Shown here: positions 2,283-61,659 of the stretch, one piece after another | Numbering within the stretch: the stretch's first letter is position 1 | How the letters are laid out: each line of letters begins with the position of its first letter | Assembly (NCBI GenBank): GCA_964427615.1 | Contig: CAYRUR010000001.1 | Coordinates: 219,241-283,240, forward strand | Direction of reading: 5' to 3' | Length of the DNA stretch: 64,000 bases | DNA from: an uncultured Gammaproteobacteria bacterium | Lineage (GTDB): Bacteria > Patescibacteriota > Microgenomatia > Levybacterales > GWA1-39-11 | Position numbers and translations under genes: made by a program | The notes under the pieces: model-generated | The model's input: the letters and a program-made list of their open reading frames with translations, nothing else | The model's database searches: none | What the model was told of the DNA's origin: nothing

Positions 2283-3503
2283 CTATACAAACAGCTTGAG
2301 ATGATCCAAAAGATCTTCTATATCGAAAGAAAACCCAATATGGTTATCTTTCAAGAAATCAAATGGATTATCTTCTCCAATGATGTTTGCGTTTGCAGTA
2401 TTCTGAATGCGAATACGTGAGTCTGCGTCACCGGTTTCAATTTCAGTGTCGCCTCTTGTATTGAAGCCTGCAAAGTTATCCCCAGTTTCTAGGTCTCTTA
2501 CATCGATGTCATTATCCAAGTCAGCATCGTTGTCCTGATCTAAATCAGTGGTATCATCGAGTGTAAGGTCAATAACGTTGAGAGACTCTGCTCCGTTGTC
2601 ATCAATCTTTGCTAAAGCATCAAATGCACATCCGCAGTCAACGTCTGCATGGTTAAAGTTGACCAAGTTATCAACTATGACCTCTGCATTTGCATCACCA
2701 GTTTCAATTTCAACATCGCCTCTTGTATTGAAGCTAGCTGTGTTGTCGCCAGTTTCTGCATCTACATCAACGTCATTGTCGATATCTGCATCATTATCTT
2801 GGTCTATCTCAGTATCTTGATCGAGATCAGCAGTGATGAAATTATCACTGAAGGCTCCATTATCAAGAATTTTTGCGCTGAAAGATCCGGATGAACGGTT
2901 ATGACCGTTTCCTATAGATGCACTGTTGGCATTGGCTATAGTGCGTAAGTTGACTTTTGTATTAGCATCACCAGTCTGGATGCTTACATCTCCCCGTGTG
3001 TTGAAGTCAGCGGTATTATTTCCCGTGTCTGCATCTACGTCAATGTCGTTGTCTACATCTGCATCATTGTCCTGATCTATGTCGATAGTGTTGTCATTCT
3101 CTATATCTACAACATTGTCTGAAAATGCTCCATTATCCTCAATGAGGACACTGCTGCCTTCTGACTTACAACAGTCAACCTTTGCTTTATTACTGTTTAG
3201 TACATTTTGTACATTAACAGAGGTGTTAGCATCTCCTGTCTTGATCTCTACATCTCCTCCGGTGTTAAAGCTGGCGCTATTGTTTCCTGTATTCGCATCG
3301 ACATCAATATTGTTATCTACATCGGCATCGTTGTTTTGCCGTATGGTAGTATCACTTGATTGGTTTATTGTTGCGAAGTTATCAGAAAATGCGCCATTTC
3401 CAGAAATCTCAGTGGTTGTACTTGCGAGTGCTGGGGCGCCCATAGAAAGTATGACTGCCCCTGCTGTCATTGCTGAAAAAAGTTGTTTTTTAAGATTTGT
3501 CAT
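2283..3503 (-). CDS. Secreted Asp/Asn-rich protein with four repeats of about 88 aa, paralog of the upstream repeat protein
   Basis: ORF 2283..3542. The internal ATG at 3503 is preceded by GGAGGTG (spacer about 11 nt) and followed by MTNLKKQLFSAMTAGAVILSMGAPALAS (signal peptide). There are four repeats NGAFSDN...DQDNDADVDNDIDVDA.TGNN.A.FNTRGDVEI.TGDAN. No LPXTG is present. Confidence 0.75.
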   Translation of the reverse strand: MTNLKKQLFSAMTAGAVILSMGAPALASTTTEISGNGAFSDNFATINQSSDTTIRQNNDADVDNNIDVDANTGNNSASFNTGGDVEIKTGDANTSVNVQNVLNSNKAKVDCCKSEGSSVLIEDNGAFSDNVVDIENDNTIDIDQDNDADVDNDIDVDADTGNNTADFNTRGDVSIQTGDANTKVNLRTIANANSASIGNGHNRSSGSFSAKILDNGAFSDNFITADLDQDTEIDQDNDADIDNDVDVDAETGDNTASFNTRGDVEIETGDANAEVIVDNLVNFNHADVDCGCAFDALAKIDDNGAESLNVIDLTLDDTTDLDQDNDADLDNDIDVRDLETGDNFAGFNTRGDTEIETGDADSRIRIQNTANANIIGEDNPFDFLKDNHIGFSFDIEDLLDHLKLFV

Positions 3504-3620
3504 ATGTTTAGTTTCACCTCCCTTCTTTTTCCTTTGATACAAATCAAAGTGTAATTTTTGTGCTAAAAGTTTTGCTTAACACAAGCACTTCTTTTTTTAC
3601 CGCTTTTGTTTCGTTATGTA

Positions 3621-3682
3621 TTCCGAAAACAAAAAACGGAGGCTTCTCAATCCAACTAGTGTTAGGTTGAAAAGCCTCCGTT
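3621..3682 (-). terminator. Intrinsic terminator: a 16-bp inverted repeat (one mismatch) with a 16-nt loop and a U-tract on the minus strand
   Basis: AACGGAGGCTTCTCAA (3635-3650) pairs with TTGAAAAGCCTCCGTT (3667-3682). The plus-strand A-run 3627-3636 reads as a U-run 3' of the hairpin on the minus strand. It lies downstream of the minus-strand gene 3986-4552. Confidence 0.6.
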
Positions 3683-3985
3683 CTCGGTAGGTTAATTACT
3701 TAATGTAGGGTTCTCTCGGCAGAAAGAATTAGTGACTTCCTTTTGAAAAATAGGTAGTTAATATATACAAACAGACTCTTTTATTGTCAATATACCTAGA
3801 CAGTATCTTACTTTTTTCTTACTCCTATCAGTGTTTATTTTTAAGCTGTATTGAAATTTCTTTTGAGCTGGATTTTGGTAGGAGGGAAGATAAAGATCAT
3901 TTTTTATTTGTTCTTTATAAGAGCAACTACTGTTATGGTTGTGGTTCTTTTGATTGTAGTTTTTTACAGAGAAAGTATCCATTAC

Positions 3986-4831: not shown

Positions 4832-4861
4832 TTGACTTGCCTTCCTTTCTTCTGGTAGAAT
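4832..4861 (+). promoter_or_regulatory. Sigma-70-like promoter TTGACT-N18-TAGAAT upstream of nusA
   Basis: TTGACT 4832-4837 and TAGAAT 4856-4861. The same -10 hexamer occurs in the rpoB promoter. Confidence 0.5.
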
Positions 4862-4895
4862 AGGGAAGAAATTTAGGGATAGATAGAAAGTGTTT

Positions 4896-4929
4896 GGTGG
4901 GAGCAAGTTGTCAACCCACCTTATTTTTT
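4896..4929 (+). promoter_or_regulatory. Leader hairpin (GGTGGG/CCCACC stem, 13-nt loop) plus U-tract between the nusA promoter and the nusA start; putative attenuator
   Basis: GGTGGG 4896-4901 pairs with CCCACC 4915-4920, followed by TTATTTTTTA 4921-4930. Confidence 0.4.
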
Positions 4930-4953
4930 ACATATCCATCAAATACGAATATT

Positions 4954-5964
4954 ATGGCAGTTGTACAAAGAAGCGAATTTACATTAGCATTAAATCAGAT
5001 TGCCTCTGAGCGAGGGGTAGATCCTGAAGTGGTGTTGGACACCATGAAGAATGCAATTCTTGCTGCATATAGAAAAGATCATCCTATTGAAGAAGAGGAA
5101 GAAGAAAAATATGCAGTAGATCTCAACGAAGGTACAGGAGAGACTCGAATTCTTAAAGATGGAGAAGATGTAACACCTCCTGGATTTGGTCGTATTGCTA
5201 CTCAAACTGCAAAACAAGTCCTCTTGCAAAAAATTAGAGAAAAAGAAAAAGATGCAATCCTTGAGGAATATGAAAAAAGAGTTGGTACTGTCGTAAATGG
5301 TATGGTTTTGCGATTCCAGGGTCCTTTGATCATTGTGGATATTGGTAAAACTGAAGCAATTATGCCTCCTCAGCAAAAAATACACAATGAACAATACTAT
5401 CTAAATAAAAAAATTCCGGTATATATTGTTGAAATTACAGATGAGAAAAAGCGAGAAATTATTGTTTCCCGCAATCATCCAGGACTTATCGAAGGCCTTC
5501 TAAAAAGAGAAGTCCCAGAGGTTGCATCAGGCAATGTAACTATTAAGAAGATTGTCAGAGAAGCTGGAAGTAGAGCTAAAGTAGCAGTGTATTCAGAGCA
5601 ATCTGGTATTGATCCAGTAGGTAGCTGTGTGGGACAAAAAGGAGTACGTATTCAAGCAGTGATTGATGCGCTTGATGGTCTCGAAAAAATTGATGTTATT
5701 CAATGGAATCCTGATATTACTAGATTTATTGCAAATGCCCTTTCTCCAGCTAAGGATATTACCGTAAGTGTTAATCAAGACGAAAAGTTGGCAAAAGTAA
5801 AAGCTTCAAAAGAAGAGTTGCCATTGGTGATTGGTAGAGAAGGACAAAATGTAAGACTTGCTTCAAAATTAGTAGGCTATAACATTGAAGTTGAAGGGTA
5901 TGAAACTGATCCTGAACCTGTTCAGGAAACTGAAGCCGTTGAAGTTAACCAGGAAAAGGAGTAA
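4954..5964 (+). CDS. nusA: Transcription termination/antitermination factor NusA
   Basis: ORF 4894..5964 (TTG). The probable ATG start is at MAVVQRSEFTLALNQIASERGVDPEVV (NusA N-terminal domain). S1 and KH regions follow (VIGREGQNVRLASKL). Confidence 0.85.
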   Translation: MAVVQRSEFTLALNQIASERGVDPEVVLDTMKNAILAAYRKDHPIEEEEEEKYAVDLNEGTGETRILKDGEDVTPPGFGRIATQTAKQVLLQKIREKEKDAILEEYEKRVGTVVNGMVLRFQGPLIIVDIGKTEAIMPPQQKIHNEQYYLNKKIPVYIVEITDEKKREIIVSRNHPGLIEGLLKREVPEVASGNVTIKKIVREAGSRAKVAVYSEQSGIDPVGSCVGQKGVRIQAVIDALDGLEKIDVIQWNPDITRFIANALSPAKDITVSVNQDEKLAKVKASKEELPLVIGREGQNVRLASKLVGYNIEVEGYETDPEPVQETEAVEVNQEKE

Positions 5965-5999: not shown

Positions 6000-7463
6000 A
6001 TGCCAGAACAAGAGATTACAACACAACTCTATCCACCTGTTGTCTCAGTCCTAGGTCATGTAGACCATGGGAAAACCTCCTTACTTGATAAAATCAGAAA
6101 AACTCATGTTACAGAACGAGAAAGCGGTGGAATTACCCAAAGCATTGGTGCTTCCCAAATTACCATAGATCATGAAGGCAAAAAAAGAACGATTACCTTT
6201 GTGGATACACCTGGACATTTGGCATTTGCCAATATGCGTTCTCAAGGGGTGAGTGCCTCAGATATTGTGCTTTTGGTAGTAGCAGCAGATGATGGGGTTA
6301 TGCCTCAGACAATCGAGTCTATCGAAAAAATCCAGGAATCCAACCTTCCCTATATTGTAGTTATTACCAAAATAGATGCAGAAGGAGCACAGGTAGAACG
6401 GGTAAAACAACAACTGCTTTCACGAGGTGTTTTGTTGGAAGGACTGGGAGGCTCTGTGCCTTTTATTGGTGTTTCATCCAAGACTGGACAAAATATCCAA
6501 GAGTTACTTGATTTAATAGTGCTTATCTATGATCTCTCGGCTGTAAATAAAGACAAAAACGCAGATTTTTTGGGAGTGGCCATTGAATCCAAAATTGATC
6601 CAAGACGTGGTCCTATCGCCTCAATTGTAGTCAAACAAGGAACTCTGAAAGTACGAGACATGGTTTATATTCAAGGCAAAGAGGTAGGTAAAGTGAGAGC
6701 CTTATTTGATACCCAAGCAAAAGGGGTAAAAGAGGCATATCCAGGTGATGCAGTAGAAATTTTAGGACTTTCAGAAGTATTGCCTATGGGAGATCTTGTC
6801 TATACGCGTCCAGTAGATACGCATCCACAAGTGGTAGAACAAGCGCTTATGCCTAAAAGACCCTCTTCTTTAGCTGAGTTTTTTGGTGAAGAGGAAGCAC
6901 GCTTGCTTTCGGTAGTTATTAGAACACAGACCAGTGGAGAACTTGAAGCAATTAAATCTTCCTTGCCTGAGGATGTAAAAGTAGTATTTGAAGGACAAGG
7001 AGATATTACAGTTTCAGATACTATGCTTGCTAAAGATTTTCAGGCTATTGTGCTTGGTTTTCATGTAGGTATTACCAAAGATGCTAAAGCTTTTGCTGAG
7101 ACAGAAAACGTTTTTTATAAAACCTACTCCATTATTTATGAATTATTAGATGAGGTAAATGATGTGCTGCTTGCGATGAAAGAAGAACCTGAGGTAAAGA
7201 TTTTAGGTAAGGCTAGTATTTTAGCTAGCTTTCCCTCTGATGAGGGTAGAATTATTGGTGCTCGAGTCATCGAAGGCAGAATTGCTTTAAATGATACCGT
7301 CACCATTACTCGTGAAGATGCAGAAATTGGTACAGCAAAAATTGTGATGTTGAAAAAAGGGAAAAACCCAGTAAAGGAAGTAGGCAAAGGTTCAGAATGC
7401 GGTATTTCGATTGATCCTTTTGTTGACTTTTCAGTAGGCGATATGCTATTATCCCATAGGTAA
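6000..7463 (+). CDS. infB: Translation initiation factor IF-2, compact 487-aa form lacking long N-terminal domains
   Basis: G-domain VVSVLGHVDHGKTSLLD and DTPGH motifs; IF-2 C-terminal beta-barrel region. Confidence 0.88.
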   Translation: MPEQEITTQLYPPVVSVLGHVDHGKTSLLDKIRKTHVTERESGGITQSIGASQITIDHEGKKRTITFVDTPGHLAFANMRSQGVSASDIVLLVVAADDGVMPQTIESIEKIQESNLPYIVVITKIDAEGAQVERVKQQLLSRGVLLEGLGGSVPFIGVSSKTGQNIQELLDLIVLIYDLSAVNKDKNADFLGVAIESKIDPRRGPIASIVVKQGTLKVRDMVYIQGKEVGKVRALFDTQAKGVKEAYPGDAVEILGLSEVLPMGDLVYTRPVDTHPQVVEQALMPKRPSSLAEFFGEEEARLLSVVIRTQTSGELEAIKSSLPEDVKVVFEGQGDITVSDTMLAKDFQAIVLGFHVGITKDAKAFAETENVFYKTYSIIYELLDEVNDVLLAMKEEPEVKILGKASILASFPSDEGRIIGARVIEGRIALNDTVTITREDAEIGTAKIVMLKKGKNPVKEVGKGSECGISIDPFVDFSVGDMLLSHR

Positions 7464-8472: not shown

Positions 8473-8745
8473 ATGCCGCTTACGACAGAAGAAAAAAAAC
8501 AAATTATAGAACAAAATGCAGTTGCCAAAGGAGACACTGGCAGTCCTGAAGTACAGATTGCACTCCTTTCTAATAAAATAGAAAAATTGACTGATCACTT
8601 AAAGATCCACCAAAAAGATTCACACTCTCGCAGAGGTCTTTTGAATATGCTTTCCAAAAGAAGAAGGCTCTATAGCTTTTTAGTGAAAGTTGACCCAAAT
8701 AGAGCAAAGGAAATAGCAGGGAAAGTAGGAATGAGAACAGCATGA
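8473..8745 (+). CDS. rpsO: 30S ribosomal protein S15
   Basis: MPLTTEEKKQIIE...LTDHLKIHQKDSHSRRGLL is a typical S15 sequence. Confidence 0.92.
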   Translation: MPLTTEEKKQIIEQNAVAKGDTGSPEVQIALLSNKIEKLTDHLKIHQKDSHSRRGLLNMLSKRRRLYSFLVKVDPNRAKEIAGKVGMRTA

Positions 8746-10958
8746 AACAAATCTCCAAATCTTTAGAACTCAACGGTAAAACAATAACCCTCGAAACAGG
8801 TGTTTTAGCAGAACAAGCTTCAGCAAGTATCTTAGCCCGAATGGGAGATACCGTCGTTTTGTCCACAGTCGTAATGGGGAAAAATGATACTACCCTCAAT
8901 TATTTTCCGTTAAGCGTTGAATATGTAGAGCGTCTCTATGCTGGTGGTAGAATTAAAGGCAGCAGATGGGTAAAACGAGACGGTAGACCAACTGAGGATG
9001 CTATTTTGACCGGAAGAGTTATAGATCGCTCTATTCGCCCCCTTTTTCCTAAAGAATTAAAAAAAGATGTTCAGGTAGTTGTGACGGTGCTTTCAGTTGA
9101 CGGAGAGAATGATCCTGGAATTTTAGGAGTTGTAGCAACTTCTGCAGCACTTGCTGTTTCTAATGTTCCTTGGAATGGTCCTATTGGTACAGTGCGCGTT
9201 GGTATTATGGGTGATTCTGAAACAAGAGAAGTTGTAATTAATCCTCATGCAGCAGAATCTCAATTTTTAGATTTGGACATGATTGTTTCCTCTTCTGTTA
9301 AAGGAAATGTAATCATGATTGAGTCAGGCGCACGAGAGGTAAAAGAAGATAGTGCACTGGAAGCGATTAAAAAAGCAAAAGAGGCAAATCAACAAATTAT
9401 CGAGTTCATTCAAGAACTAGTAAAAGAAATTGGTCAGCCAAAAATAGCAGTTGCCAAAGACGAAAGTCTTGAAGAAGCAGTAATGCTGGTTGAGAAAAGT
9501 TATAAAGACAAAATTGAAAAAATTGTTGAAGAAGGCGTAAATAAAGAAGTTGGTGGACAGTTAGATGAAATCGCTTCAGAAATTAGTGAAATTGAGGAAA
9601 GCATTGAAGACAAAAAGAAAATAAAAGAAGCTGTTGAATATGTTTTCAAAAAAACAATCCGAGAGAGAATCCTAAGAGACAAGAAAAGACCTGATGGAAG
9701 AGGTATTGATGAAATTAGACCTATTTTTGCTCGGGTTGGTGTACTTCCTAGAACTCATGGTTCTGGCATTTTTACCCGTGGACAGACACAAGCTTTAAGT
9801 GTGGCTACGCTTGGTTCTCCGGCAATGGAACAATTAATAGATGGTCCTGAAGGAGAAGAGACAAAGCGTTACATGCATCACTACTTTTTCCCACCTTACT
9901 CAGTAGGTGAAACAGGAAGAATTGGTTTTCCTTCACGCCGTGAGATAGGACATGGTGCATTGGCAGAAAGAGCATTGGTAGCCGTGCTCCCTTCTGAAAA
10001 AGATTTCCCTTATGCTATTCAAGTAGTGTCAGAAGTTATGTCTTCTAATGGATCTAGCTCTATGGCTTCTACTTGTGGTTCTACTCTTGCTTTGATGGAC
10101 GCAGGAGTTCCGCTTAAAAATCCAGTGGCAGGTATTGCGATTGGTCTTATGACAAAAGGAGATGACTATTCCGTACTAACTGATATTATCGGACTTGAAG
10201 ATTTCTCAGGAGATATGGACTTTAAAGTTGCCGGAACAAAAGAAGGTATTACTGCCATTCAATTAGATGTAAAGATTGACGGCTTAACTGATGAGATGAT
10301 TGTTGAGACTTTGGAAAAAGCTAAGAAGGCACGCTTGTTCATTTTGGACAAAATGCTGGCAGTTATTTCTGAGTCACGCAAAGAAGTTTCTCAATATGCT
10401 CCTAAGATTAAGACAGTTCAGATTAATCCTGAGAAAATTGGAGAAGTTATTGGTAGCGGTGGTAAGACGATTCGCCAAATTAGCAGCACAACAGGTGCCA
10501 CTGTCGATGTAGAAGAAGATGGAACTGTAACCCTTACCTCTATTGATGAAGCAGCAGTTGAGAAAGCAGCACATTGGATTGAGACGCTTACTAAAGAAGT
10601 ACAACCGGGTGAAGTTTTTGAAGGAACAGTCAAAAGAATTTTATCATTCGGAGCATTTGTAGAATTAGTTCCTGGAAAAGAAGGTATGGTACACGTCTCA
10701 GAAATGGCTGATGAATATGTACAAAATCCTGAAGATGTTGTGCAAATTGGCCAACAGGTAAAGGTACGAGTAAAAGAAGTAGATGATCAGGGAAGAATTA
10801 ACCTTTCTATGCGATTTGGAACAGCCGCAGAAGATGTTGAAAAAAAACAAAGCCGTGAAAGAGAAAGAGGCGGTAGAAGAGAGATGGCTGGAGCAGGAAG
10901 AGTAAAAGATAATTGGCCACGCAGAGATAATGGCAACCGCAGACCTCCTCGCCGTTAA
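8742..10958 (+). CDS. pnp: Polynucleotide phosphorylase
   Basis: Two RNase PH domains, KH and S1 motifs, and an R/G-rich C-terminal tail. It overlaps rpsO by 4 nt (ATGA). Confidence 0.92.
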   Translation: MKQISKSLELNGKTITLETGVLAEQASASILARMGDTVVLSTVVMGKNDTTLNYFPLSVEYVERLYAGGRIKGSRWVKRDGRPTEDAILTGRVIDRSIRPLFPKELKKDVQVVVTVLSVDGENDPGILGVVATSAALAVSNVPWNGPIGTVRVGIMGDSETREVVINPHAAESQFLDLDMIVSSSVKGNVIMIESGAREVKEDSALEAIKKAKEANQQIIEFIQELVKEIGQPKIAVAKDESLEEAVMLVEKSYKDKIEKIVEEGVNKEVGGQLDEIASEISEIEESIEDKKKIKEAVEYVFKKTIRERILRDKKRPDGRGIDEIRPIFARVGVLPRTHGSGIFTRGQTQALSVATLGSPAMEQLIDGPEGEETKRYMHHYFFPPYSVGETGRIGFPSRREIGHGALAERALVAVLPSEKDFPYAIQVVSEVMSSNGSSSMASTCGSTLALMDAGVPLKNPVAGIAIGLMTKGDDYSVLTDIIGLEDFSGDMDFKVAGTKEGITAIQLDVKIDGLTDEMIVETLEKAKKARLFILDKMLAVISESRKEVSQYAPKIKTVQINPEKIGEVIGSGGKTIRQISSTTGATVDVEEDGTVTLTSIDEAAVEKAAHWIETLTKEVQPGEVFEGTVKRILSFGAFVELVPGKEGMVHVSEMADEYVQNPEDVVQIGQQVKVRVKEVDDQGRINLSMRFGTAAEDVEKKQSRERERGGRREMAGAGRVKDNWPRRDNGNRRPPRR

Positions 10959-22989: not shown

Positions 22990-23009
22990 GATTATTAATT
23001 TAAAAGTTA

Positions 23010-23100
23010 AAACTCAAAAATCAAAAGTACAATTAAAAAGTAAAAATTTTTAGTTTAAATTTCATTTACTTTTGACTTTTGCATTTTGAATTTTGAATTT
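23010..23100. repeat. AT-rich imperfect palindrome between the two transketolase subunit genes, related to a copy at 61711-61765
   Basis: Left arm AAACTCAAAAATCAAAAGTACAATT; right arm CTTTTGACTTTTGCATTTTGAATTTTGAATTT (reverse complement AAATTCAAAATTCAAAATGCAAAAGTCAAAAG). Confidence 0.45.
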
Positions 23101-23103
23101 TTT

Positions 23104-32428: not shown

Positions 32429-33385
32429 ATGAAAAAAATAATTATTGTATCTACAGTTATTCTTCTGAGCATTGTTGCAGGATTACTGTGGTGGAACAGA
32501 GGAATGGCTGCAGTGAATACGCAAGACAAGCACGAAGAGGTATTTGTTATTCGTAAAGGTGCAGGACTACGTGAGATAGCCAATGATTTAAAAGAAAAAG
32601 GACTGATTGTGGATCCTACTGTTTTTTTCCTATACGTTAAGAAAGAAGGAAAAGATACCGAAATTCAGTATGGGAGTTTTCGCCTTTCTCCTTCTATGAG
32701 TGCCAAAGAAATTGCCGAAAATCTCACACATGGAACCTTTGATATGTGGGTGACTTTTAAAGAAGGTATTCGGGCTGAGGAAGTGGCAGATATTCTGCAG
32801 CAAGAGTTTCCTCAATTTGAACCCAGTTGGAGGACAGAGCTTATTAAAGAGGAAGGATTTCTTTTTCCTGATACGTATTTAGTGCCAAAAGACGCTACAG
32901 TGGAGACAATCATACAGGTTATGAAAGACAATTTCTATAAAAGGACTGTGGAGTTAGGCTTAGAGAAAGATTCAGCAGAGGAAAAAAATGCAGTAATTAT
33001 TGCCTCACTGATAGAAAGAGAAGCCAGATATGATAATGATATGGGACTGGTCTCATCAGTAATTCACAACCGTTTAGCAGATGGCATGTCTCTTGATATT
33101 GACGCTACTCTGCAGTATGCAATAGGTAAAGGGCACAAAGGGGGTACATGGTGGAAAATACCAGAAGGGGTTGATACGAAATTGGAGTCTCCTTACAATA
33201 CCTATAGAAATCCAGGTCTTCCGCCCACCCCTATTTCCAATCCAGGCTTAAGAGCATTAAAAGCCGCTGTTAATCCAGCAGAAAGTGAATATTATTTTTA
33301 TGTATCAGATGAAAACGGACATCTTCATTTTGCCAAAACCTTAGCGGAACACAATCAAAATATTGAAAAGTACTTGAATAACTAA
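32429..33385 (+). CDS. mltG: Endolytic murein transglycosylase MltG (YceG family)
   Basis: N-terminal TM; LIEREARYDNDMGLVSSVIHNRL and YNTYRNPGLPPTPISNPG motifs. Confidence 0.85.
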   Translation: MKKIIIVSTVILLSIVAGLLWWNRGMAAVNTQDKHEEVFVIRKGAGLREIANDLKEKGLIVDPTVFFLYVKKEGKDTEIQYGSFRLSPSMSAKEIAENLTHGTFDMWVTFKEGIRAEEVADILQQEFPQFEPSWRTELIKEEGFLFPDTYLVPKDATVETIIQVMKDNFYKRTVELGLEKDSAEEKNAVIIASLIEREARYDNDMGLVSSVIHNRLADGMSLDIDATLQYAIGKGHKGGTWWKIPEGVDTKLESPYNTYRNPGLPPTPISNPGLRALKAAVNPAESEYYFYVSDENGHLHFAKTLAEHNQNIEKYLNN

Positions 33386-33405: not shown

Positions 33406-33434
33406 TTGACAAACTTTTCGTATGTAAGTAGAAT
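33406..33434 (+). promoter_or_regulatory. Consensus promoter TTGACA-N17-TAGAAT for rpoBC
   Basis: TTGACA 33406-33411, 17-nt spacer, TAGAAT 33429-33434. Confidence 0.6.
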
Positions 33435-33446
33435 ATGAGTTACGAA

Positions 33447-33480
33447 AATAAGGGTGTATGGTGCCCTTATTATTTTGTTG
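33447..33480 (+). promoter_or_regulatory. rpoB leader hairpin (AATAAGGG/CCCTTATT, 9-nt loop) plus ATTTTGTTG U-rich tract; putative attenuator
   Basis: Perfect 8-bp stem 33447-33454 with 33464-33471, followed by a U-rich run about 30 nt before the rpoB ATG. Confidence 0.45.
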
Positions 33481-33511
33481 TATTAAAGAGTCTCGTCCTT
33501 ATTAGTTCCAG

Positions 33512-36500
33512 ATGGCTAAAACACAAATAATAGAAAGACAATTTTGGGGTAACGATTACAAGAATATTCCTCCTTTGGATTTGCTTGGGATTCAGAAGAA
33601 ATCCTATGAGTGGTTTATTGAGGAAGGAATAAGGGAAGTACTCAATGAAATTTCCCCTATTGAAGATTTTACCGGTAAAAACTGGGAATTGTCTTTGCAT
33701 GGTTATTCCCTCGGCGAGCCAAAGATTTCTGAAGAATATGCAGTAGCAAAAGGTCTCACTTACTTTTCCCCTCTTACTGTTGAAGCCACACTTATGAATA
33801 AAAGAAGTGGTAAGCGGGTAACTCAAGAAGTTTTCTTGGGCGAAGTACCAAAAATGACTGAGAGAGGTACTTTTATTGTTAACGGTATTGAAAGAGTTAT
33901 TATTAACCAAATTGGAAGATCCCCAGGTGTATTTTTCACCGCTACAGAAGATCCTATTACTGGCAAAACCTTATACACTGCTGAGATGAGACCAGTACAT
34001 GGGTCTTGGTTAGAATTCTCAACCACTCGCAACGATATGGTTGTAGTAAGAATTGATAGAAGAAAGAAATTCTTAACCAGCATTTTCCTTAAAGCACTAG
34101 GTATTGATACCAATGAGCAAATTGCAGAAAAATTTGAAGGTATTGAAGGCGCAGATACATTTATCAAAAATACGCTTGAAAAAGATGATACCAAAGGCCA
34201 GACTGATGCCTTGATTGAGATCTTCAAAAAAATGAATCCAGGAGAGCCAATCGTGCTGGACACCATTCGGGAAAATTTCAGATCTCTTTTCTTTGACAGA
34301 AGAAGATATGATCTTTCTCGTGTAGGTAGATACAAAGTAAATAAAAAACTAAATAGACTTCCTAACTTTACTCCTTCAGAAGAACTTACTCTTACTCTTG
34401 ATGACGTTATTGGAGTTATTTCCTATCTTGTAGAACTAACACAAGGCAAAGGAAAAATGGATGACATCGATCACTTAGCAAACCGTAGAATTCGTAGCGT
34501 AGGAGAATTGGTTCAGACAACTGCTTTCAGAGTTGGTGCACTTCGACTTGAGAGAATTGTCAAAGAAAAGATGTCTTTGGCTTCCACTGAGGAAGAGTTC
34601 TCTCCTACTCATTTTATTAATGCCCATCCTATTATTGCAGCCACTAATGAATTCTTTAGAACTTCACAACTTTCATCTATTTTAGATCAAATCAATCCAC
34701 TCTCAGAAATTGACAACTTAAGAAGACTTACCGTTATGGGTACTGGTGGTATTTCACGAGAAAGAGCATCCTTCTCTATTCGTGATATTAATGCTTCTCA
34801 GTATAGCCGTATTTGTCCCGTAAGATCACCTGAAGGTCCTAATATTGGACTCGTAACCTACCTTTCTCTATATACCAGAGTAAATGAGTATGGCTTCTTA
34901 GAAGCACCATACCGCAAAGTTGTGAAAGAAGGAACTGGAAAAAATGTCAAAATGCGCGTTACTGATGAAGTTGTGTATCTAGATGCAGAGGAAGAAGCAG
35001 AGCACTACATCACTCATGCTGATATTACTTTGGATGAGAATGGATATATTGTGGACGATGTGATTCCTGCTAGATACAATACTCAATATCTTGAGACAGA
35101 AAAAGACAAGATTGAGTATATTGATGTTGTGCCACGACAGGTAATTGGAACTTCAGCTTCACTTATTCCATTTATTGACCATGACGAAGCCAACCGTGCA
35201 CTCATGGGTACTCACATGCAATGTCAAGCTGTACCGCTTATTAAAAGTGAAAGCCCAGTTGTGGGAACGGGTATGGAAGGAGCAGTTTCAGCAGCTATGG
35301 GACGTGTTGTCCGAGCTCCATTTGAAGGAGAAGTAGAATATGTTGATGCAGAAAGGTTGACATTAAAAGGAGCAAATGGTGAAAAGGCAAGTTACACTAT
35401 TGAGAAATTCAAGAGAACTTCCCAAAATACCTTCTTTAGTCAAAGAGCTGTAGTATCAGCAGGTCAAAAGGTAAAGAAGGGAGATCTTTTAGTTGATGGA
35501 CCTTCATCAGAGAATGGAGAGCTTGCTCTTGGAAAGAATTTGTTAATTGCCTACGCTTCCTTTGACGGTCTAGGATATGAGGATGCTATTGTTATCTCAG
35601 ATAGATTGGTCAAAGATGATGTATTGAGCTCAGTGCATATTGAAAAATACGAAGCAACTGTAGTTGATACCAAGCTTGGTCCAGAAGAAACCACTCGTGA
35701 TATTCCTAATGTTGCAGAAGATGAACTGGCGAATCTAGATGAAGAAGGAATTGTTGTCATTGGATCAGAAGTTGGTCCAGGTGATATTCTGATTGGAAAG
35801 ATCGCTCCAAAAGGTGAAACAGAACTGACTGCTGAGGAAAGATTGTTGCGTGCTATTTTTGGAGAAAAAGCACGAGAAGTACGAGATACCTCTTTGAGAA
35901 TGCCACACGGTGAGCGCGGAACCGTAATTAGCGTGCAAGTACTTGATAGAGCAAAGGGTGACGAATTAGAGCCAGGCGCTTTGAAGAGAATGATTGTAGA
36001 GGTTGCTCAATTAAGACACGTAGTAGTAGGAGACAAGCTTGCCGGACGACACGGAAACAAGGGTGTTATCTCCAAAATTGTTCCTCAATCTGATATGCCA
36101 TATCTTGAGGATGGAACACCAGTTGATATTATTATTTCCCCAATTTCTGTGCTTGGTCGTATGAATTTGGGACAGCTTTTGGAAGCACATTTGGGATGGG
36201 CTGCTTACAAATTAGGACACAAAGTTGCACTTCCAGCATTTGAAAAAGTTTCAGAAGAGAGAATTTTTGATACCTTAGAGAAAGCAGACATTCCACTTTC
36301 AGGAAAAGTAAAATTGTTTGATGCCAGAACCGGTGAGGCTTATGAAAATGATGTAGTGGTGGGTATTTCCTACATCTTGAAGCTTATTCACATGGTAGAG
36401 GACAAGACTCATGCTCGTAGCACTGGTCCATACTCACTCGTTACCCAACAACCTTTGGGAGGTAAAGCACAAATGGGTGGTCAAAGACTTGGAGAGATGG

Positions 36501-36964
36501 AGGTCTGGGCATTGGAAGCACACAGAGCTGCATACACCTTGCAGGAAATGCTTACTATTAAATCTGATGATATCTCAGGACGTGCAAAGGCTTTTGAAGC
36601 AATTGTTAAGGGTGTTGATATCCCAACACCAAAAGTACCAGAGTCATTTAAAGTACTTATCAGAGAGTTGCAGTCACTAGGTCTTAATATTGTACCAACT
36701 GGTTTGGCAGAACAAATGGAAGAAGTTGTGGAAACAGAAGAGGAATTAGAGCAAGAAGGAGAGGTCAGAGAACAAGCTGAAGAGTTAAAAGAAGCCTTAG
36801 AAAGAGATGAAGAGCTTTCTACAGAAGAAAATGTACAACGAGTAGATGATGATACGTTTGAAGGAGAAATACTGCATGCAGAAGGCGAAAAAACAGAAAA
36901 GACAGCTATTGAAGAAACAACAGAAGGAATAACAGGGGAAGGAGAAGAAGAACCAAAGGAGTAA
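33512..36964 (+). CDS. rpoB: DNA-directed RNA polymerase subunit beta
   Basis: 1150 aa with canonical beta motifs and an acidic C-terminal tail. Confidence 0.95.
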   Translation: MAKTQIIERQFWGNDYKNIPPLDLLGIQKKSYEWFIEEGIREVLNEISPIEDFTGKNWELSLHGYSLGEPKISEEYAVAKGLTYFSPLTVEATLMNKRSGKRVTQEVFLGEVPKMTERGTFIVNGIERVIINQIGRSPGVFFTATEDPITGKTLYTAEMRPVHGSWLEFSTTRNDMVVVRIDRRKKFLTSIFLKALGIDTNEQIAEKFEGIEGADTFIKNTLEKDDTKGQTDALIEIFKKMNPGEPIVLDTIRENFRSLFFDRRRYDLSRVGRYKVNKKLNRLPNFTPSEELTLTLDDVIGVISYLVELTQGKGKMDDIDHLANRRIRSVGELVQTTAFRVGALRLERIVKEKMSLASTEEEFSPTHFINAHPIIAATNEFFRTSQLSSILDQINPLSEIDNLRRLTVMGTGGISRERASFSIRDINASQYSRICPVRSPEGPNIGLVTYLSLYTRVNEYGFLEAPYRKVVKEGTGKNVKMRVTDEVVYLDAEEEAEHYITHADITLDENGYIVDDVIPARYNTQYLETEKDKIEYIDVVPRQVIGTSASLIPFIDHDEANRALMGTHMQCQAVPLIKSESPVVGTGMEGAVSAAMGRVVRAPFEGEVEYVDAERLTLKGANGEKASYTIEKFKRTSQNTFFSQRAVVSAGQKVKKGDLLVDGPSSENGELALGKNLLIAYASFDGLGYEDAIVISDRLVKDDVLSSVHIEKYEATVVDTKLGPEETTRDIPNVAEDELANLDEEGIVVIGSEVGPGDILIGKIAPKGETELTAEERLLRAIFGEKAREVRDTSLRMPHGERGTVISVQVLDRAKGDELEPGALKRMIVEVAQLRHVVVGDKLAGRHGNKGVISKIVPQSDMPYLEDGTPVDIIISPISVLGRMNLGQLLEAHLGWAAYKLGHKVALPAFEKVSEERIFDTLEKADIPLSGKVKLFDARTGEAYENDVVVGISYILKLIHMVEDKTHARSTGPYSLVTQQPLGGKAQMGGQRLGEMEVWALEAHRAAYTLQEMLTIKSDDISGRAKAFEAIVKGVDIPTPKVPESFKVLIRELQSLGLNIVPTGLAEQMEEVVETEEELEQEGEVREQAEELKEALERDEELSTEENVQRVDDDTFEGEILHAEGEKTEKTAIEETTEGITGEGEEEPKE

Positions 36965-36999: not shown

Positions 37000-39900
37000 G
37001 TGCTTATGGATACAAGAAAAAAGAACAACAATAATAAAAAATTCGATGTTATTAACGTCGCTGGATTTTCAGGACTAAAAATTCTAGTTGCTGATTCCAA
37101 AGACATCATGGATTGGTCTTATGGAGAAGTTACCAAGCCAGAGACTATCAATTACAGAACCTTTAGACCAGAAAAAGATGGACTTTTTGATGAAAGAATC
37201 TTTGGTCCAACCAGAGACTTTGAATGCTACTGTGGTAAATACAAGAGAATCCGCTACAAGGGTATTATTTGTGACAGATGTGGTGTTGAGGTTACCTACT
37301 CTCGAGTAAGAAGAGAGCGCATGGGTCATATTAAGCTTGCATCTCCAGTAATTCACGTGTGGTTTTCTAAAGGTACTCCTTCAAGACTTTCTACTTTACT
37401 TGATGTCCCTCAAAAAGACCTCGAATCAGTTATTTATTTTGCCAGCTACTTAGTAACTGGTGTTAATGAGGAGAAAAGAAAAGAAGCACAGCAAAAACTT
37501 GAGGATATCAAAAATAGAAGAATTGATGAACTTAAAAAGCAGGTAGAGACAGAAAAAGCATCACTTGAGACTGAAGAGCAAGAAAAATTAAAAGACGTTG
37601 AAAAAACAGTAAAGACAGAGCAGAGAGAATTAGTTGTAGATGAGGTCGCCAGACAATACAGACAAAAAAGAGTAGTCCTTGATAAAAGACTTGATACCGA
37701 AACAAAGAGAATCGAGGAAATTGTAGGACGAGTAGGTGATATTATTAATAACTTGCGCGTATGGCACGTACTTTCAGAAGAAGAATACGTACGTCTTGTT
37801 GAGTACGACATTCCAATTTTCTTTGATGTAGAGACAGGTGCGGCAGCAATCTCACAAGCTGTAGACGCCTTGGATATTCCAAAATTGGTTGGTCATTTGC
37901 GTGAAGAAATTGGCAAGTCAAGCGGTCAAAGACAATTAAAGCTTCTGAAAAGATTGCATCTTATTGAAGCAATTAATAAATCTGGATTTAAACCATCTTC
38001 TTTGGTGTTAAATGTCCTTCCAGTACTTCCACCAGATCTTCGTCCAATGGTACAGCTCAATGGTGGTAGATTTGCAACCTCTGATTTAAATGATCTTTAC
38101 AGAAGAGTTATTAACAGAAATAATCGTTTGCATCACCTTATTTCTCTTGGTGCTCCTGAAATTATTCTGCGCAATGAGAAAAGAATGTTACAGGAAGCAG
38201 TTGACTACTTGATTGATACTTCTATCAGAAAGACCGGATCTAGCAGCCAGCAGAGACAATTCAAATCCTTGTCAGATGTTCTTAGAGGAAAACAAGGTCG
38301 ATTCAGAAAGAATCTTCTTGGAAAGCGTGTAGATTACTCTGGTCGTTCAGTAATTATTGTAGGTCCAGAACTTGCATTGAATCAGTGTGGTATTCCAAAA
38401 GAAATGGCATTAGAGTTGTTTAAGCCGTTTGTCATTAGAGAAGTTATTGCACGAGGATACACCACACCAAATGCAAAAGCCGCAAAGAGATATATTGAGA
38501 AAAGATCTCCTGAAGTATTTGATATTCTTGAGGAAATCATTGAAAATCATCCAGTGTTATTGAACCGTGCTCCTACTCTGCACAAACTCGGTATTCAGGC
38601 ATTTTACCCAGTATTGGTAGAAGGATCTGCTATTAGATTGCATCCTTGTGTATGTTCTGGTTATAACGCAGACTTTGATGGAGACCAAATGGCTATTCAC
38701 GTACCACTCTCCAAAGATGCTCAAAAAGAAGCAGAAGAGCTTATGATGCCGGTACACAACCTCTTGAAACCCGCAGATGGTAGCCCTGTCACTTTGCCAA
38801 ACAAAGAAATGGCTCTCGGTTCTTACTACCTTACTAGCATAGATGAAAGACTGAGAAAAGAAAATCTTCCTGTTTTTGCTGATGAGCAAGAAGCACATTT
38901 GGCATACTCTTTGAAGAAGATTTCCCTAAGACAGCCTATCAAAGTAAAGATAAATGGTGAAATCCTTGAAACCACGATGGGAAGAATCATCTTCAACGAA
39001 AAACTTCCTCAAGGAATGGCCTTTATTAATGATAGTGTTAGAGCAAAGTCCATTACCAAGATTATTACTAAAGCAATGGTTGAATATCCAGAAGAGGAAG
39101 TTGCCAGAACTATTGACGCTATTAAGGAAATTGGATTCTGGTCAGCAACTATTTCAGGTATTTCAGTTTCTACCTTTGATTTGAAGATGTATCCAGAGAA
39201 AGAAGGGCTTTTGAAAGAAGCTGATAAGAAGGTAAAAGAAATTGAAGAAGAGTATCAAAACGGTCTTATTACCCAAGCAGAGCAAAAGAGACTTGCTAAC
39301 AATGTTTGGATGGATCTGACTGAGAGAATGGCAAATCTTACTTGGGATTTGTTTGAGAAGCATGATATGGTAAATATTATTGCTGAATCAGGAGGAGCTC
39401 GTGCAGGAAAAGACCAGATCAAGCAGATGGCTGCTATGAGAGGATTGATGTACGATCCATTGGGAAGAATCGTAGAGCTGCCGGTTAAATCTAACTTCCG
39501 TGAAGGTCTTTCTATTTTCGAGTACGTTAACTCAGCAAGAGGTTCACGCAAAGGATTGACTGACTCAGCACTCAGAACTGCTGATGCAGGATACTTGACC
39601 AGAAGATTGGTTGATGTAGCTCATGATGCTATTATTAGAGAGGAAGAATGTGGTAGTGAAGAAGGTTTAACTGTCAATGTCGCAGACAAAGATAACAAAG
39701 ATTACATCAATAACATGATCTTAGGCCGCGTAGTCTTGTCTGATATCAAGAGCAAAGATTCCAAGAAAGTATTGGTAAAGAAAGGTGATATTGTAGATCA
39801 CAATGCAGTAGAAGAGGTAATTGCTGATAAGAGTATTACTGAAGTTGAGATTAGAACTCCTTTGTACTGCAAACTGAAGTATGGTATTTGTGCAAACTGC

Positions 39901-40755
39901 TATGGTTGGGATCTTTCTTCCTACAAGAAGGCTGATATTGGTACCCCAGTTGGAGTTTTGGCAGCCCAGTCTATTGGTGAGCCAGGAACTCAGCTTACCA
40001 TGCGTGTAAAGCACTTTGGAGGAGTTGTTATGTCAGACGTTACGCAAGGTTTGCCAAGAGTAGAAGAACTTTTTGAAGTCAGAAGACCAAAGAACCTTGC
40101 TCCAATTGCTGAAATTAGTGGTAAAGTAGAGGTGTCCGAAGTTGAAGATGGTATTGTTATCCGAGTAAGAAATACAAAGGTAAAACCAGCAGAAGAGAGA
40201 GAATACTTTGTACCAAAGACAGCAACTGTATTGGTTGAGGAAGGTGAGACTGTAGTAGCAGGAACTCAGCTTTGCGAAGGATATTTGGACCCAAGAGATG
40301 TTTTGAAAGTTGGTGGATTACAAGCTGCTCAAGAGTATCTTACCAAAGAAGTACAAAAGGTGTATGAGTCACAAGGTATTTCTATTCACTACAAACATTT
40401 TGAGACAATAGTACAAAAGATGTCTGATAAGGTTATGATTGTGTCTCCAGGAGATACATCTCTCTTACCAGGAGAATTAGTGAGCAAGACCAGTTTTGAA
40501 AATGAGAACGCAAATGTTATCTCAGAAGGTGGAGAACCTGCAACTGCACGAGAGACTATCTTGGGTGTTACCAAAGCAGCACTGGTTACTGACTCATGGC
40601 TTTCAGCAGCTTCTTTCCAAGAGACTACTCAGGTACTGACAGAGGCAGCACTTGAAGGAAGAGAAGATGATCTTATTGGTTTGAAAGAAAATGTTATTGT
40701 TGGAAGACTCATCCCTGTCCGCGAGGAGTTCATTGAAAGTGGACAGCCTGCCTAA
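37000..40755 (+). CDS. rpoC: DNA-directed RNA polymerase subunit beta'
   Basis: Zn-binding CxxC...CxxC N-terminus; NADFDGDQM catalytic motif. Confidence 0.95.
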
Positions 40756-41693: not shown

Positions 41694-41724
41694 GCTAAGC
41701 TTGTTAGTTAATTCCTCTTTAGAA

Positions 41725-41748
41725 GTCGCCTTCAGGCGATTTTTTTAT
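41725..41748 (+). terminator. Intrinsic terminator after rpsG (TCGCC-TTCA-GGCGA hairpin plus T7)
   Basis: Hairpin 41726-41739 followed by TTTTTTT. It overlaps the stop codon of the convergent minus-strand gene. Confidence 0.55.
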
Positions 41749-44448: not shown

Positions 44449-44510
44449 TTTACAAATATCTCTCTATGAGGTAAAATAGCTAAGTCTTCTTAAAAAGACG
44501 TGTTTTTTTA
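44449..44510 (+). promoter_or_regulatory. Putative fusA promoter TTTACA-N17-TAAAAT followed by a weak hairpin plus T-tract in the leader
   Basis: TTTACA 44449-44454, TAAAAT 44472-44477, hairpin GTCTT/AAGAC 44484-44499, then TGTTTTTTTATTGTTTT. Confidence 0.35.
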
Positions 44511-44525: not shown

Positions 44526-46637
44526 ATGGCTGACAAAAATAATAGACTCTATCCATTAGATAAAATTAGAAACATTGGAATCATTGCTCACATTGATTCC
44601 GGTAAAACGACCACCACTGAGCGTATTCTCTACTACACTGGTAGAAGTTACAAGATTGGAGATATTGATGAAGGAAATACAGTCATGGACTGGATGGATC
44701 AGGAAAGAGAGCGTGGTATTACTATTGTTTCTGCTGCTACTACCACCTTCTGGAAAGATACCCGTATTAACATTATTGATACTCCCGGACACGTAGACTT
44801 TACCGCAGAAGTAGAACGCTCTTTGCGTATTCTTGATGGTGCTGTAACTGTACTTGATGCAGAAGAAGGAGTACAGTCTCAATCTGAAACTGTGTGGAGA
44901 CAAGCTGATAAATATAACGTTCCTCGTCTTTGTTTTGTCAACAAAATGGACAAGATTGGCGCAGACTTCTTAAAGACTGTCAAGAGTATTGAGGAGAGAC
45001 TCGGTGCAAATCCTGTTATTATGGTGCTTCCTATTGGTGCTGAAAGTGATTTTGTGGGAGTATTTGACCTTCTAAATATGAAATCTATTGTGTGGAGTGG
45101 TGAGGATTTGGGAGCGAAATTCACTGTTTCTGATGATATTCCAGCAGGTATGGAAGCCCAAATTGAAGAGTACAGAAATAAGATGATTGAAAAGATTGCA
45201 GAGACAGATGATGCACTTCTTGAAAAATATTTCAGTGGAGAAGAAATTTCCAATGAAGAGTTACAGCAGGCACTCAGAAGCGCAACTATTGCTTATAAAG
45301 TTGTACCTATTTATGCAGGATCATCTTTGAGAAATAAAGGAGTACAGCCTCTACTTGATGCAGTAGTAAGTTATCTTCCGTCTCCTGCAGACTTAAAAGA
45401 AGTGAAAGGACTACATCCAAGAACTGGTGAGGAAGAGACTCGACAGCTTATTTTGGAAGAGCCTCTTTCAGCATTTGCTTTTAAAGTACAGGTAGATCCT
45501 CATGTAGGTAAAATTACGTATCTAAGAATTTATTCAGGAAAACTTGAATCAGGATCTTATGCGTATAATAGCTCTAAAGATACTAAAGAGCGAGTGGGAC
45601 GACTGCTTTTGATGCACGCTAACCAAAGAGAAGAAATTAAAGAAGCCTATGCTGGTGAAATTGTTGCTGTTGTAGGACTCAAAGAAACCGTTACTGGAGA
45701 CACGCTTTGTGATCAGGACCATCCTATTGTTTTAGAGCAAATTACCTTCCCAGAACCTGTTATTTCTCTTGCTATTGAGCCAAAAACAAAATCAGATCAG
45801 GAAAAATTAGGTGCAGCCATGAAAAGGTTGATGGAGGAAGATCCTACCTTTACTGTAAAAACAGATCATGATACTGCTCAGACTATTATTTCCGGTGTAG
45901 GAGAATTGCAATTGGATATTATGGTAGAGCGTATGAAGAGAGAATTTGGAGTGGAGGCAAATGTAGGTGCTCCACAAGTGGCTTATAAAGAGACTATCAC
46001 TGGTAGTGCAGAAGCAGAAGGAAAATACATCAGACAAACCGGAGGACGTGGTCAGTATGGACATTGTATGATTCGCATTGAGCCAAAAGGCCGTGGTGAA
46101 GGGTATGAATTTGTTGATGCTATTAAAGGTGGAGCAATTCCAAGTGAGTTTATCAAATCAGTACAAAATGGTATCAAAGAAGCAATGGAAAATGGTGTGC
46201 TTCTCGGGTATCAGCTTACTGACTTGAAGGTTACTTTGTACGATGGATCATTCCATGAGGTTGACTCTTCTGATATCGCCTTTAAGATTGCTGGAAGCCA
46301 GGCATTACAGTCTGGTGCACGCAAAGCACAACTTACCCTTTTGGAGCCTATTATGAAGGTAGAAGTAACCACTCCTGAAGAATTTATGGGAGATGTTATT
46401 GGTGATCTTTCCTCCAAGAGAGCACAAATCCTGGGTACTGAGGAAAGAGGAAATGCTCGCATTATTAAAGCCATGGTACCATTGGCAGAACTTACGGGAT
46501 ACGCTACTTCACTACGTTCTATTACGCAGGGACGAGCCACTCCTTACGTTGAGCCTTCTCATTATGAGGAAGTACCAAAGAATATTATTGATCAAATGCT
46601 TTCAAAATCTACCTTCTCAGGAAGAATTGAAGCTTAG
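44526..46637 (+). CDS. fusA: Elongation factor G
   Basis: AHIDSGKTT and DTPGHVDF motifs; full five-domain length. Confidence 0.95.
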
Positions 46638-61637: not shown

Positions 61638-61659
61638 GAATTGAGCGCTTAGCGTATAG

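Follow-up and report, generated by a model that had tools for sequence, protein, structure and literature searches.

The 64,000-nucleotide stretch of contig CAYRUR010000001.1 analyzed here (positions 219,241 to 283,240, referred to as the window) carries a predicted promoter, an RNA hairpin, and a U-rich tract in the 5' leaders of nusA, rpoB, and fusA, and these elements are probably intrinsic (Rho-independent) terminators that serve as attenuators, their read-through being governed by factors or kinetics at the level of the elongation complex; we estimate the probability of this reading at about 65%. The elements share their anatomy, their position between promoter and start codon, and their strand, they are conserved in relatives, and the nusA stem shows covariation. 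The closest relatives of the encoded NusA, RpoB, and elongation factor EF-G are in metagenome-assembled genomes of Candidatus Levybacteria/Levyibacteriota (Microgenomates, Candidate Phyla Radiation [CPR]). All three arrays of promoter, hairpin, and U-tract had been proposed from the window sequence alone, as leader attenuators of core operons whose recurrence suggested conserved feedback control, and all three lie where they were placed, with small corrections to their details. The nusA leader illustrates the organization and has the following features.

4832-4861, plus strand: predicted nusA promoter, with -35 TTGACT at 4832-4837, an 18-nt spacer, an extended -10 TG at 4853-4854, and -10 TAGAAT at 4856-4861 (10/12 match with TG)
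~4867-4869, plus strand: predicted nusA transcription start site, from the predicted promoter
4896-4920, plus strand: nusA leader hairpin, GGTGGG (4896-4901), 13-nt loop, CCCACC (4915-4920), with a folding free energy (dG) of about -10 to -11 kcal/mol
4921-4929, plus strand: nusA U-tract, UUAUUUUUU, abutting the hairpin directly, with a predicted termination point at ~4927-4930

The promoter and hairpin are as originally predicted, but the tail (TTATTTTTT, 4921-4929) is not an uninterrupted U9, having 8 U residues in 9 positions, and the ATG at 4954 follows it after 24 nt. An A-rich stretch at 4884-4893 can lengthen the helix by pairing with the U-tract; compared with shuffled sequences, the core hairpin has a z score of -1.3, and the extended fold one of -3.8. 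With a 6-bp stem in which all but one pair is G-C, a 13-nt loop, and one A in the U-run, the window terminator is arguably suboptimal, and many orthologs have 7- to 10-bp stems, 4- to 6-nt loops, and clean U6-9 runs. The 64 kb contain a single GGTGG...CCACC pattern, where 0.23 would be expected. Although the mechanical open reading frame (ORF) call begins at TTG 4894, the real nusA start is ATG 4954, and a leader peptide or N-terminal extension beginning at this in-frame TTG was rejected because the spacing in relatives is not a multiple of three and NusA alignments begin at the ATG. A second, near-leaderless promoter between the U-run and the ATG was also rejected, there being no TAnnnT box at the right distance in the window.

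For comparison, 80 loci of relatives were retrieved (~7 kb each; 81 sequences with the window; loci are designated by L numbers). Thirty-five of them (36 of 81 with the window), mostly with NusA proteins at least ~68% identical, contain GGTGG(G), a 4- to 14-nt loop, (C)CCACC, and then a T-run, exactly once per locus and always just 5' of nusA. Across 169 loci (~1.1 Mb), GGTGG...CCACC plus a T-run is found nowhere except 5' of nusA, and this restriction, together with its single copy in the window, excludes it as a generic terminator form of the lineage. A cTTGACT-N14-cTGnTAnAAT promoter lies upstream in 30 of the 35 hairpin-bearing relatives, so that hairpin and U-tract stand between a conserved promoter and the ATG in relatives too, where the original prediction would have been undermined by their loss. 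The distance from the -10 box to the hairpin ranges from 10 to 67 nt and that from stem to ATG from 11 to 53 nt (104-233 nt in five cases), but a T5-9 run abuts the (extended) stem without a gap in all 35. These hairpins have dG values of -9 to -16 with U6-9, and the 32-nt segments that end at the T-run fold more stably than shuffled sequences (mean z -3.2, n = 35).

Selection on the nusA structure is also evident in its alignment, in which 87% of cells are paired, compared with 42-64% in slid registers, and the covariation proposed as a check of the hairpin is present in its flanking pairs, with a score of 0.214 against 0.115 in shuffles (0/500 shuffles reach 0.214). Five different pairs occur at the position flanking the core (U-A 12, A-U 5, C-G 4, G-U 3, G-C 1), and the five core pairs are near-invariant in the 35 sequences (G-C 35; G-C 33 and A-U 2; U-A 33 and U-G 2; G-C 34; G-C 35), with loops and flanks varying freely around them. 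Stem variants are GAUGGG/CCCAUC in L014 and L020 and CCCGCC in L003 and L037. Unlike other orthologs, L014 and L020, with this compensated stem, have a much longer leader, which extends ~104 nt past the stem, contains a second hairpin, and has a genuine Shine-Dalgarno (SD) sequence (AAGGAG) before the ATG. The nusA gene sits in a divergent intergenic region. Sequestration of an SD by the hairpin was rejected, since GGUGG does not constitute an SD and, in most orthologs, is too distant from the ATG, as was a tRNA or minihelix relic (CCACCA), because an A follows CCACC in only about one-third of sequences and the loops are unrelated.

The nusA element is not universal, and is missing in 43 of the 80 loci (L034-L080), mostly with NusA 60-67% identical; two further loci are truncated where the gene begins. 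The 43 loci instead have a conserved promoter, TTGAAGC...TGGTATACT (TTGAAGC-N-(T)CTGGTATACT), ~10 nt before the nusA ATG, so that nusA is near-leaderless and leader termination cannot control it there. Because of these near-leaderless loci, the nusA element is specific to one Levybacteria subclade; its proposed conservation thus holds among close relatives and not at depth.

The rpoB leader has a similar organization.

33406-33434, plus strand: predicted rpoB promoter, TTGACA-N17-TAGAAT, an 11/12 match and the best sigma-70 match in that part of the window, with a predicted transcription start site at ~33441
33447-33471, plus strand: rpoB leader hairpin, AAUAAGGGU, 7-nt loop, GCCCUUAUU, with 9 bp, dG of about -10 (-10.2 kcal/mol), and z of -2.3
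33472-33481, plus strand: rpoB U-rich tail, AUUUUGUUGU, weak here but T6-9 in relatives, preceding ATG 33512

The promoter is as originally predicted and the stem is one pair longer than the predicted 8 bp; the A-run ahead of it (CGAAAAU) is able to pair with the U-run that follows. A metagenome scan yielded ~33 close rpoB loci (72-82% identical over the N-terminal 400 amino acids). In nearly all of them, TTGACA-N17-TATA(n)AT is followed by an A-rich stretch and a hairpin with T6-9, and the ATG lies 30-50 nt farther downstream. The TTGACA box is 17 nt upstream of a near-invariant TATA(n)AT in 27 relatives, and ~29 have orthologous hairpins, 5-25 nt past the promoter and about 15-30 nt from the -10 box, with differing stem sequences including GAUGGGG/CCCUGUC, GAGGAGGUA/UACCUUUCCUC, AGCAGGGUAU/AUACCUGCU, and GGGGGUAAGC/GCUUGCCUUC. 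What these stems have in common is a GGGUA...UACC core, a 5' arm rich in G, and many G.U pairs; on the opposite strand such pairs would read C.A, and for both rpoB and fusA they thus indicate an RNA structure on the sense strand. A hairpin with dG <= -8 abuts the T-run in 19 of 27 unique rpoB leaders, compared with 4.7% of all T>=6 runs in those genomes, a background that includes true terminators, and the 32 nt 5' of the T-run have a mean z of -2.9 relative to shuffles (n = 27). Alignment with MAFFT and RNAalifold places the arms out of register and recovers only a 5-bp core, and per-ortholog folding against shuffles and genome background was used instead.

The rpoB hairpin is kept whether the upstream gene is mltG or another, and the element therefore belongs to rpoB; an mltG terminator was rejected for this reason and because the hairpin is always downstream of the rpoB promoter. 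Distant rpoB loci of unrelated lineages, which serve as a negative control and not as evidence of deep conservation, have only sporadic hairpins. Many rpoB relatives (L082, L086, L087, L102, L103, L110, L111, and L114, among others) also carry cTTCTAGAATTTATTTCyG in the 20 nt directly before the ATG, a block that includes the palindromic TTCTAGAA and in some relatives also has a TAGAAT box located 9 nt from the ATG; the window version (33492-33511) is degenerate. This block might serve as a second promoter, provide a binding site, or act as a signal for translation, although a second promoter near the ATG was rejected as a general feature, the TAGAAT box being present in some relatives and not in the window or many others.

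The fusA leader is the weakest of the three in the window, as had been proposed.

44449-44477, plus strand: predicted fusA promoter, TTTACA-N17-TAAAAT, a promoter-motif match; relatives have TTTACA-N17-TGnTAnAnT or at least an extended -10
44484-44499, plus strand: fusA leader hairpin, GUCUU, 6-nt loop, AAGAC, with 5 bp, 2 G-C pairs, and dG of -2.4 to -3.9
44503-44509, plus strand: fusA U7 tract, separated from the hairpin by GTG (3 nt) and 16 nt before ATG 44526

Among 11 EF-G contexts from relatives, nine have a hairpin plus T6-8 located 0-26 nt before the ATG and downstream of a (TTTACA-N17-)TGnTAnAnT promoter, with 6-30 nt from the -10 box to the hairpin. Their stems are unrelated (AAUGCC/GGCAUU, GAGUCCC/GGGAUUC, CUCCC/GGGAG, GAACCC/GGGUUC, AAAUUCGC/GCGAAUUU, and CGUUCGA/UCGAGCG), and dG values are -7 to -11, with an AU-rich hairpin in L167 reaching -22 kcal/mol. 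The window hairpin thus looks, from this comparison, like a feeble member of a real, structurally conserved class. Like nusA, fusA is in a divergent intergenic region, and it is its own transcription unit, since three minus-strand genes separate it from rpsL-rpsG. In the three genomes compared, the distribution of the nusA and fusA elements only hints at co-occurrence, with both in L169, neither in L168, and the AU-rich fusA hairpin without a nusA one in L167.

The elements have the canonical form of intrinsic terminators, and the window provides a standard for their strength.

41721-41744: canonical intrinsic terminator after rpsG, dG -11.7 kcal/mol

This is a genuine 3' terminator, showing that the organism uses canonical intrinsic terminators, and the leader hairpins match it in strength (-11.1 for nusA and -10.2 kcal/mol for rpoB); ortholog nusA and rpoB hairpins range from -8 to -16 kcal/mol. 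Anatomy and stability range are thus shared with the organism's own 3' terminators, the difference being that the leader elements stand between a promoter and an essential coding sequence, where complete termination would be lethal. In the window and orthologs, all three elements have stems of 5-11 bp, loops of 3-13 nt, and, on the sense strand, a T-run 0-3 nt from the stem. Spacing is free between promoter and hairpin (10-67 nt) and between hairpin and ATG (0-53 nt, rarely over 100), but the adjacency of hairpin and U-run is fixed, which fits a requirement of termination and not a translation or 5'-end element. Better-than-shuffle folding, the nusA covariation, and rpoB and fusA stems that are re-sequenced yet remain paired indicate selection on structure. 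On single-genome evidence, the case is modest; promoter-like hexamers are no more frequent in the window than in shuffles, and it is conservation in relatives (35 for nusA, ~29 for rpoB, and 9 of 11 for fusA) that lifts the finding above chance and bears out leader terminators on core genes as a matter of anatomy.

The architecture is also specific. A strict scan of 869 kb on both strands for a strong promoter, then a hairpin with dG <= -7 plus T>=6, and then an ORF start returned only the nusA, rpoB, and fusA leaders and one additional site in the window.

4653-4574, minus strand: possible fourth example, divergent from nusA, with TTGACA-N18-(TGc)TACTAT at 4653-4624, hairpin GCCGCACCC...GGGAGCGGC at 4606-4583 (dG -15.5, z -2.6), and UAUUUUUUU at 4582-4574

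The associated gene codes for a hypothetical membrane protein starting either at ATG 4552 (MSFNTKK..., with the hairpin in the leader) or at ATG 4612 (with the hairpin inside the coding sequence), and no homolog is found beside nusA in relatives; the site is a candidate fourth leader terminator, in this case of a non-core gene. Two relatives have the design before tuf (EF-Tu), in L167 (13592-13637) and L168 (18990-19035), with TTGACG-N17-TGnTA..., a hairpin (dG -11.4 and -6.5; z -4.9 and -3.0, respectively), UAUUUUUU(U), and 5-8 nt to the ATG, and both of these genomes are without the nusA hairpin. As judged from these scans, the leader design appears to be uncommon and enriched on expression-machinery genes but not exclusive to them, because of the minus-strand site. 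The anatomy originally predicted holds for the three genes, although the set is neither exactly these nor strictly core, and the recurrence it stressed is one of architecture and not of a shared motif. The three elements share no sequence, the nusA stem being invariant, rpoB having only a GGGUA/UACC core, and fusA stems being unrelated, and the recurrence is thus convergent.

No known RNA family accounts for the elements. A search of the whole window against Rfam at the gathering score gives no matches, and under permissive settings the leaders of nusA and rpoB, as well as two other structured spacers, give only chance-level matches, all far below the gathering score. A sensor domain and a mutually exclusive antiterminator, which would mark a riboswitch, T-box, or ribosomal-protein leader, are not seen, the upstream sequence being unconserved. 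The -10-to-hairpin distance is only 10-15 nt in L001-L003, L022, L029, and L030, so that the hairpin starts ~3-10 nt after the predicted start in several orthologs, leaving no space for either. A hairpin within a few nucleotides of the 5' end, as for a 5'-terminal stabilizer, is found in a minority of orthologs and not overall.

These leaders also stand out from their genomic background. A TAnnnT box ends 5-12 nt before the start codon in 22 of 50 window genes, compared with 13.4 +/- 2.9 in shuffles, with near-start TAnAAT/TATACT boxes, for example, at 11142, 17427, 18801-, 19589-, 23104-, 47293, and 54289-, and an SD core is present in only 7 of the 50. Because of these -10-like boxes and the scarcity of SD cores, many transcription units appear to be leaderless or near-leaderless, and the organism appears to rely largely on such mRNAs; rpsL and rpsO are among the genes with near-leaderless promoters. 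The predicted leaders of ~86 nt (nusA), ~71 nt (rpoB), and ~42 nt (fusA) are exceptions to this pattern, and none of the three contains an SD in the window.

In the attenuation reading, a strong, near-consensus sigma-70-type promoter would fire and the nascent RNA would fold after ~5-60 nt into a G+C-rich hairpin with a U-run directly behind it. A fraction of polymerases would be released at the U-run, and only read-through RNA would encode NusA (and IF-2), beta/beta', or EF-G. The short start-to-hairpin distance in several orthologs (~3-10 nt), together with the lack of a conserved alternative pairing, suggests that whatever determines the read-through fraction would work directly on the elongation complex. 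In the case of nusA, the likeliest agent would be NusA, which stimulates hairpin-dependent termination and would so give negative autoregulation as in Bacillus subtilis; by this analogy, NusA feedback is the natural hypothesis. For rpoB and fusA, likely inputs would be polymerase activity or elongation rate, the level of NusA or NusG, or nucleoside triphosphate (NTP) supply.

Several points weigh against this reading. Promoters, start sites, regulation, and termination, including its partial extent and its modulator, are all predicted from sequence, and the relatives' sequences are not independent, so that the counts overstate statistical weight. The window genome has a poor U-tract in its rpoB tail (ATTTTGTTGT) and a weak fusA hairpin (z -0.6) that is not significant alone; no fusA leader hairpin was found in L166 and L168, 2 of the 11 relatives. 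Absence of the nusA element from distant Levybacteria and of the fusA element from these two implies that the control is dispensable. The nusA hairpins of relatives look like fairly good terminators, not suboptimal ones as at B. subtilis NusA-dependent sites, and fairly good terminators before essential genes would need very strong promoters or an antitermination input. Finally, the invariant GGUGG/CCACC core is unexplained by termination alone.

The main rival is a post-transcriptional role with little or no termination, in which the 5' hairpin shields leadered, highly expressed mRNAs from 5'-end-dependent decay and the U-rich stretch is an SD-independent (S1-type) ribosome landing site. The absence of an SD from the three leaders and the rarity of SD cores would fit such a role, as would the position of the AUG only 3-25 nt past the U-run in many orthologs and of the hairpin ~3-4 nt from the predicted 5' end in some nusA orthologs (L022, L029, and L030). 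We nevertheless regard it as unlikely, since the distances from start site to hairpin (~3-60 nt) and from U-run to AUG (0-53, up to 233 nt) are unconstrained, the fixed, pure U-run abutting the stem is needless for a stabilizer or an A/U-rich enhancer, and the rpoB U-run is 30-50 nt from the AUG with other conserved sequence between. The two roles could coexist, as read-through transcripts would keep the hairpin.

The near-invariance of the five nusA core pairs in 35 distinct sequences, while loops, flanks, and the outer pair vary, raises a second alternative, that the hairpin is mainly a sequence-specific protein site, with the terminator as its output device and the binder's activity as the signal. 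The rpoB and fusA stems drift at comparable divergence, so pairing alone is insufficient to explain the nusA conservation, and the motif is unique to the nusA leader in ~1.1 Mb. Candidate binders are the NusA S1/KH domains, a cold-shock-domain protein, or another RNA-binding regulator; CspA, CspC, and CspE antiterminate upstream of nusA in Escherichia coli, as far as PMC9765468 describes it. Short G+C stems may, however, stay fixed because every intermediate toward a compensatory change is deleterious, and two lineages did change the stem (L014/L020 and L003/L037). We know of no NusA or Csp recognition motif that resembles GGUGG/CCACC, and overall a protein site of this kind is rather improbable.

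A promoter with a terminator within 60 nt is also the anatomy of a small-RNA gene, and each element could be a separate gene for an RNA of ~35-65 nt, with the downstream genes using other starts near the ATG, as is the case in relatives that lack the nusA hairpin and have a promoter right at the ATG. Weak Rfam similarities are only to terminator-bearing small RNAs (Spot 42, E 0.036, and others), but every match is far below the gathering score. The start-to-hairpin stretch is conserved in neither sequence nor length (3-60 nt) and thus offers no seed region, no TAnnnT box is suitably spaced from the nusA ATG in the window, and orthologs with 3-8 nt from U-run to ATG leave no space for a second promoter, making this interpretation very unlikely. 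Chance, or a DNA palindrome serving as the operator of a dimeric repressor, is scarcely credible despite the chance frequency of promoter hexamers and the non-significant fusA hairpin in the window, as conservation in dozens of genomes excludes the former, and the nusA half-site spacing of 4 to 13+ nt and use of G.U pairs fit an RNA helix better than a DNA operator.

Attenuators in nusA and rpoB leaders are known in other bacteria, and the precedents invoked by the original prediction are sound (PMC12288461, PMC4324240). In B. subtilis, NusA-stimulated leader termination autoregulates the nusA operon (Mondal et al. 2016, as reported in the review PMC12288461), and NusA-dependent terminators are a suboptimal class with a weak hairpin and/or an interrupted U-tract (PMC12288461). 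As far as the review describes that leader, the Levybacteria nusA element resembles it in having a terminator-like hairpin and U-run between promoter and nusA, with no need of a ligand-sensing or alternative structure, and in that the gene product itself promotes hairpin-dependent termination, an arrangement that would give autoregulation. It differs, within the same limits of the source, in having no sequence similarity or Rfam family, no rimP/ylxS before nusA, an invariant GGUGG/CCACC core in a stem that looks fairly strong, and a distribution in one subclade only.

In E. coli and Pseudomonas aeruginosa, a partial terminator before rpoB passes more transcription when RNA polymerase performance drops (PMC4324240). 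The Levybacteria rpoB element is like this rplL-rpoB attenuator (P26 in P. aeruginosa) in placing a terminator-like hairpin and U-run just upstream of rpoB (PMC4324240), but whereas that attenuator is located between rplJL and rpoBC and works on RNA initiated at the rplJL promoters, here rpoB follows mltG or other genes, has its own near-consensus promoter, and shows no sequence relationship; by analogy, it could plausibly couple beta/beta' synthesis to polymerase performance. According to PMC9765468, which cites Bae et al. 2000, the metY-rpsO operon of E. coli has intrinsic terminators ahead of nusA at which CspA, CspC, and CspE lower termination. So far as that source describes the operon, the window has the same neighborhood of nusA, infB, rpsO, and pnp with a terminator-like element upstream of nusA through which read-through would control nusA expression, but no tRNA gene or rimP upstream; a cold-shock protein role in Levybacteria is pure conjecture. 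The kind of element is thus already known and is new in this lineage. Comparison of the sequences suggests that its origin is apparently independent of the B. subtilis nusA leader and the E. coli/Pseudomonas rpoB attenuator.

A literature search turned up no paper that deals with intrinsic terminators in Patescibacteria. To our knowledge, almost nothing is known about gene regulation in the CPR, and the elements offer comparative evidence that points to leader termination on the transcription and translation machinery in at least one CPR lineage. The nusA hairpin is a gene-specific RNA motif that can be converted to a covariance model for annotating these genomes, and another apparently independent origin of nusA and rpoB attenuators supports self-limiting termination control as a recurrent solution. 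Two features are noteworthy, namely, the invariance of the nusA stem sequence and the repeated use of the design on several genes of the expression machinery amid near-leaderless ones. Levybacteria have tiny genomes with few recognizable regulators, and as a speculative and doubtful extension of the attenuation reading, they may run a small 'attenuon' of antiterminator-less leader terminators before nusA-infB, rpoBC, fusA, and, in some, tuf, with one global variable setting read-through and the GGUGG/CCACC stem as recognition element for a master factor. That variable could be NusA/NusG occupancy of polymerase, or UTP/NTP supply setting elongation speed across the U-run, and this would, if true, amount to growth-rate control in a symbiont dependent on imported nucleotides.

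The window has a G+C content of ~38% and no tRNA genes were found in it. Its genes relevant to the leaders, identified with NCBIfam models, are as follows.

4954-5964, plus strand: NusA, 336 amino acids (TIGR01953, 305.6 bits), first gene of a nusA-infB-(ORF)-rpsO-pnp cluster
6000-7463: IF-2
8473-8745: S15
8742-10958: PNPase
32429-33385: MltG, the gene upstream of rpoB
33512-36964, plus strand: RpoB, followed by rpoC, rpsL, and rpsG
37000-40755: RpoC
Between rpoC and the terminator at 41721-41744: S12 and S7 (rpsL, rpsG)
Minus strand: Xaa-Pro peptidase
44526-46637, plus strand: EF-G (fusA)

Other structured spacers are present in the window. At 3630-3790 on the minus strand, a promoter-like TTGACA-N17-TATATA leads into ~130 nt whose end forms a very strong hairpin (3680-3637, dG -28) plus T6, ~90 nt before ORF 2283-3542; there is no meaningful Rfam match, the best being a plant microRNA precursor at 27 bits against a gathering score of 54, and the site might encode a small RNA or belong to a long structured leader. 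Hairpins with T-runs, again without an Rfam match, are also present in the long spacers at 59519-59540, ~200 nt upstream of a SerB-like phosphatase gene (59749), and at 63040-63260, where two such sites lie downstream of a promoter-like site and before GTG 63261. AT-rich palindromic blocks of AAAGTT/AACTTT-like units recur intergenically (22990-23103 and 61638-62026), are inserted in the nusA leaders of L006, L047, L054, and L062, and form the -22 kcal/mol hairpin plus U6 right before fusA in L167 (9912-10003); they may be a family of intergenic repeat elements.

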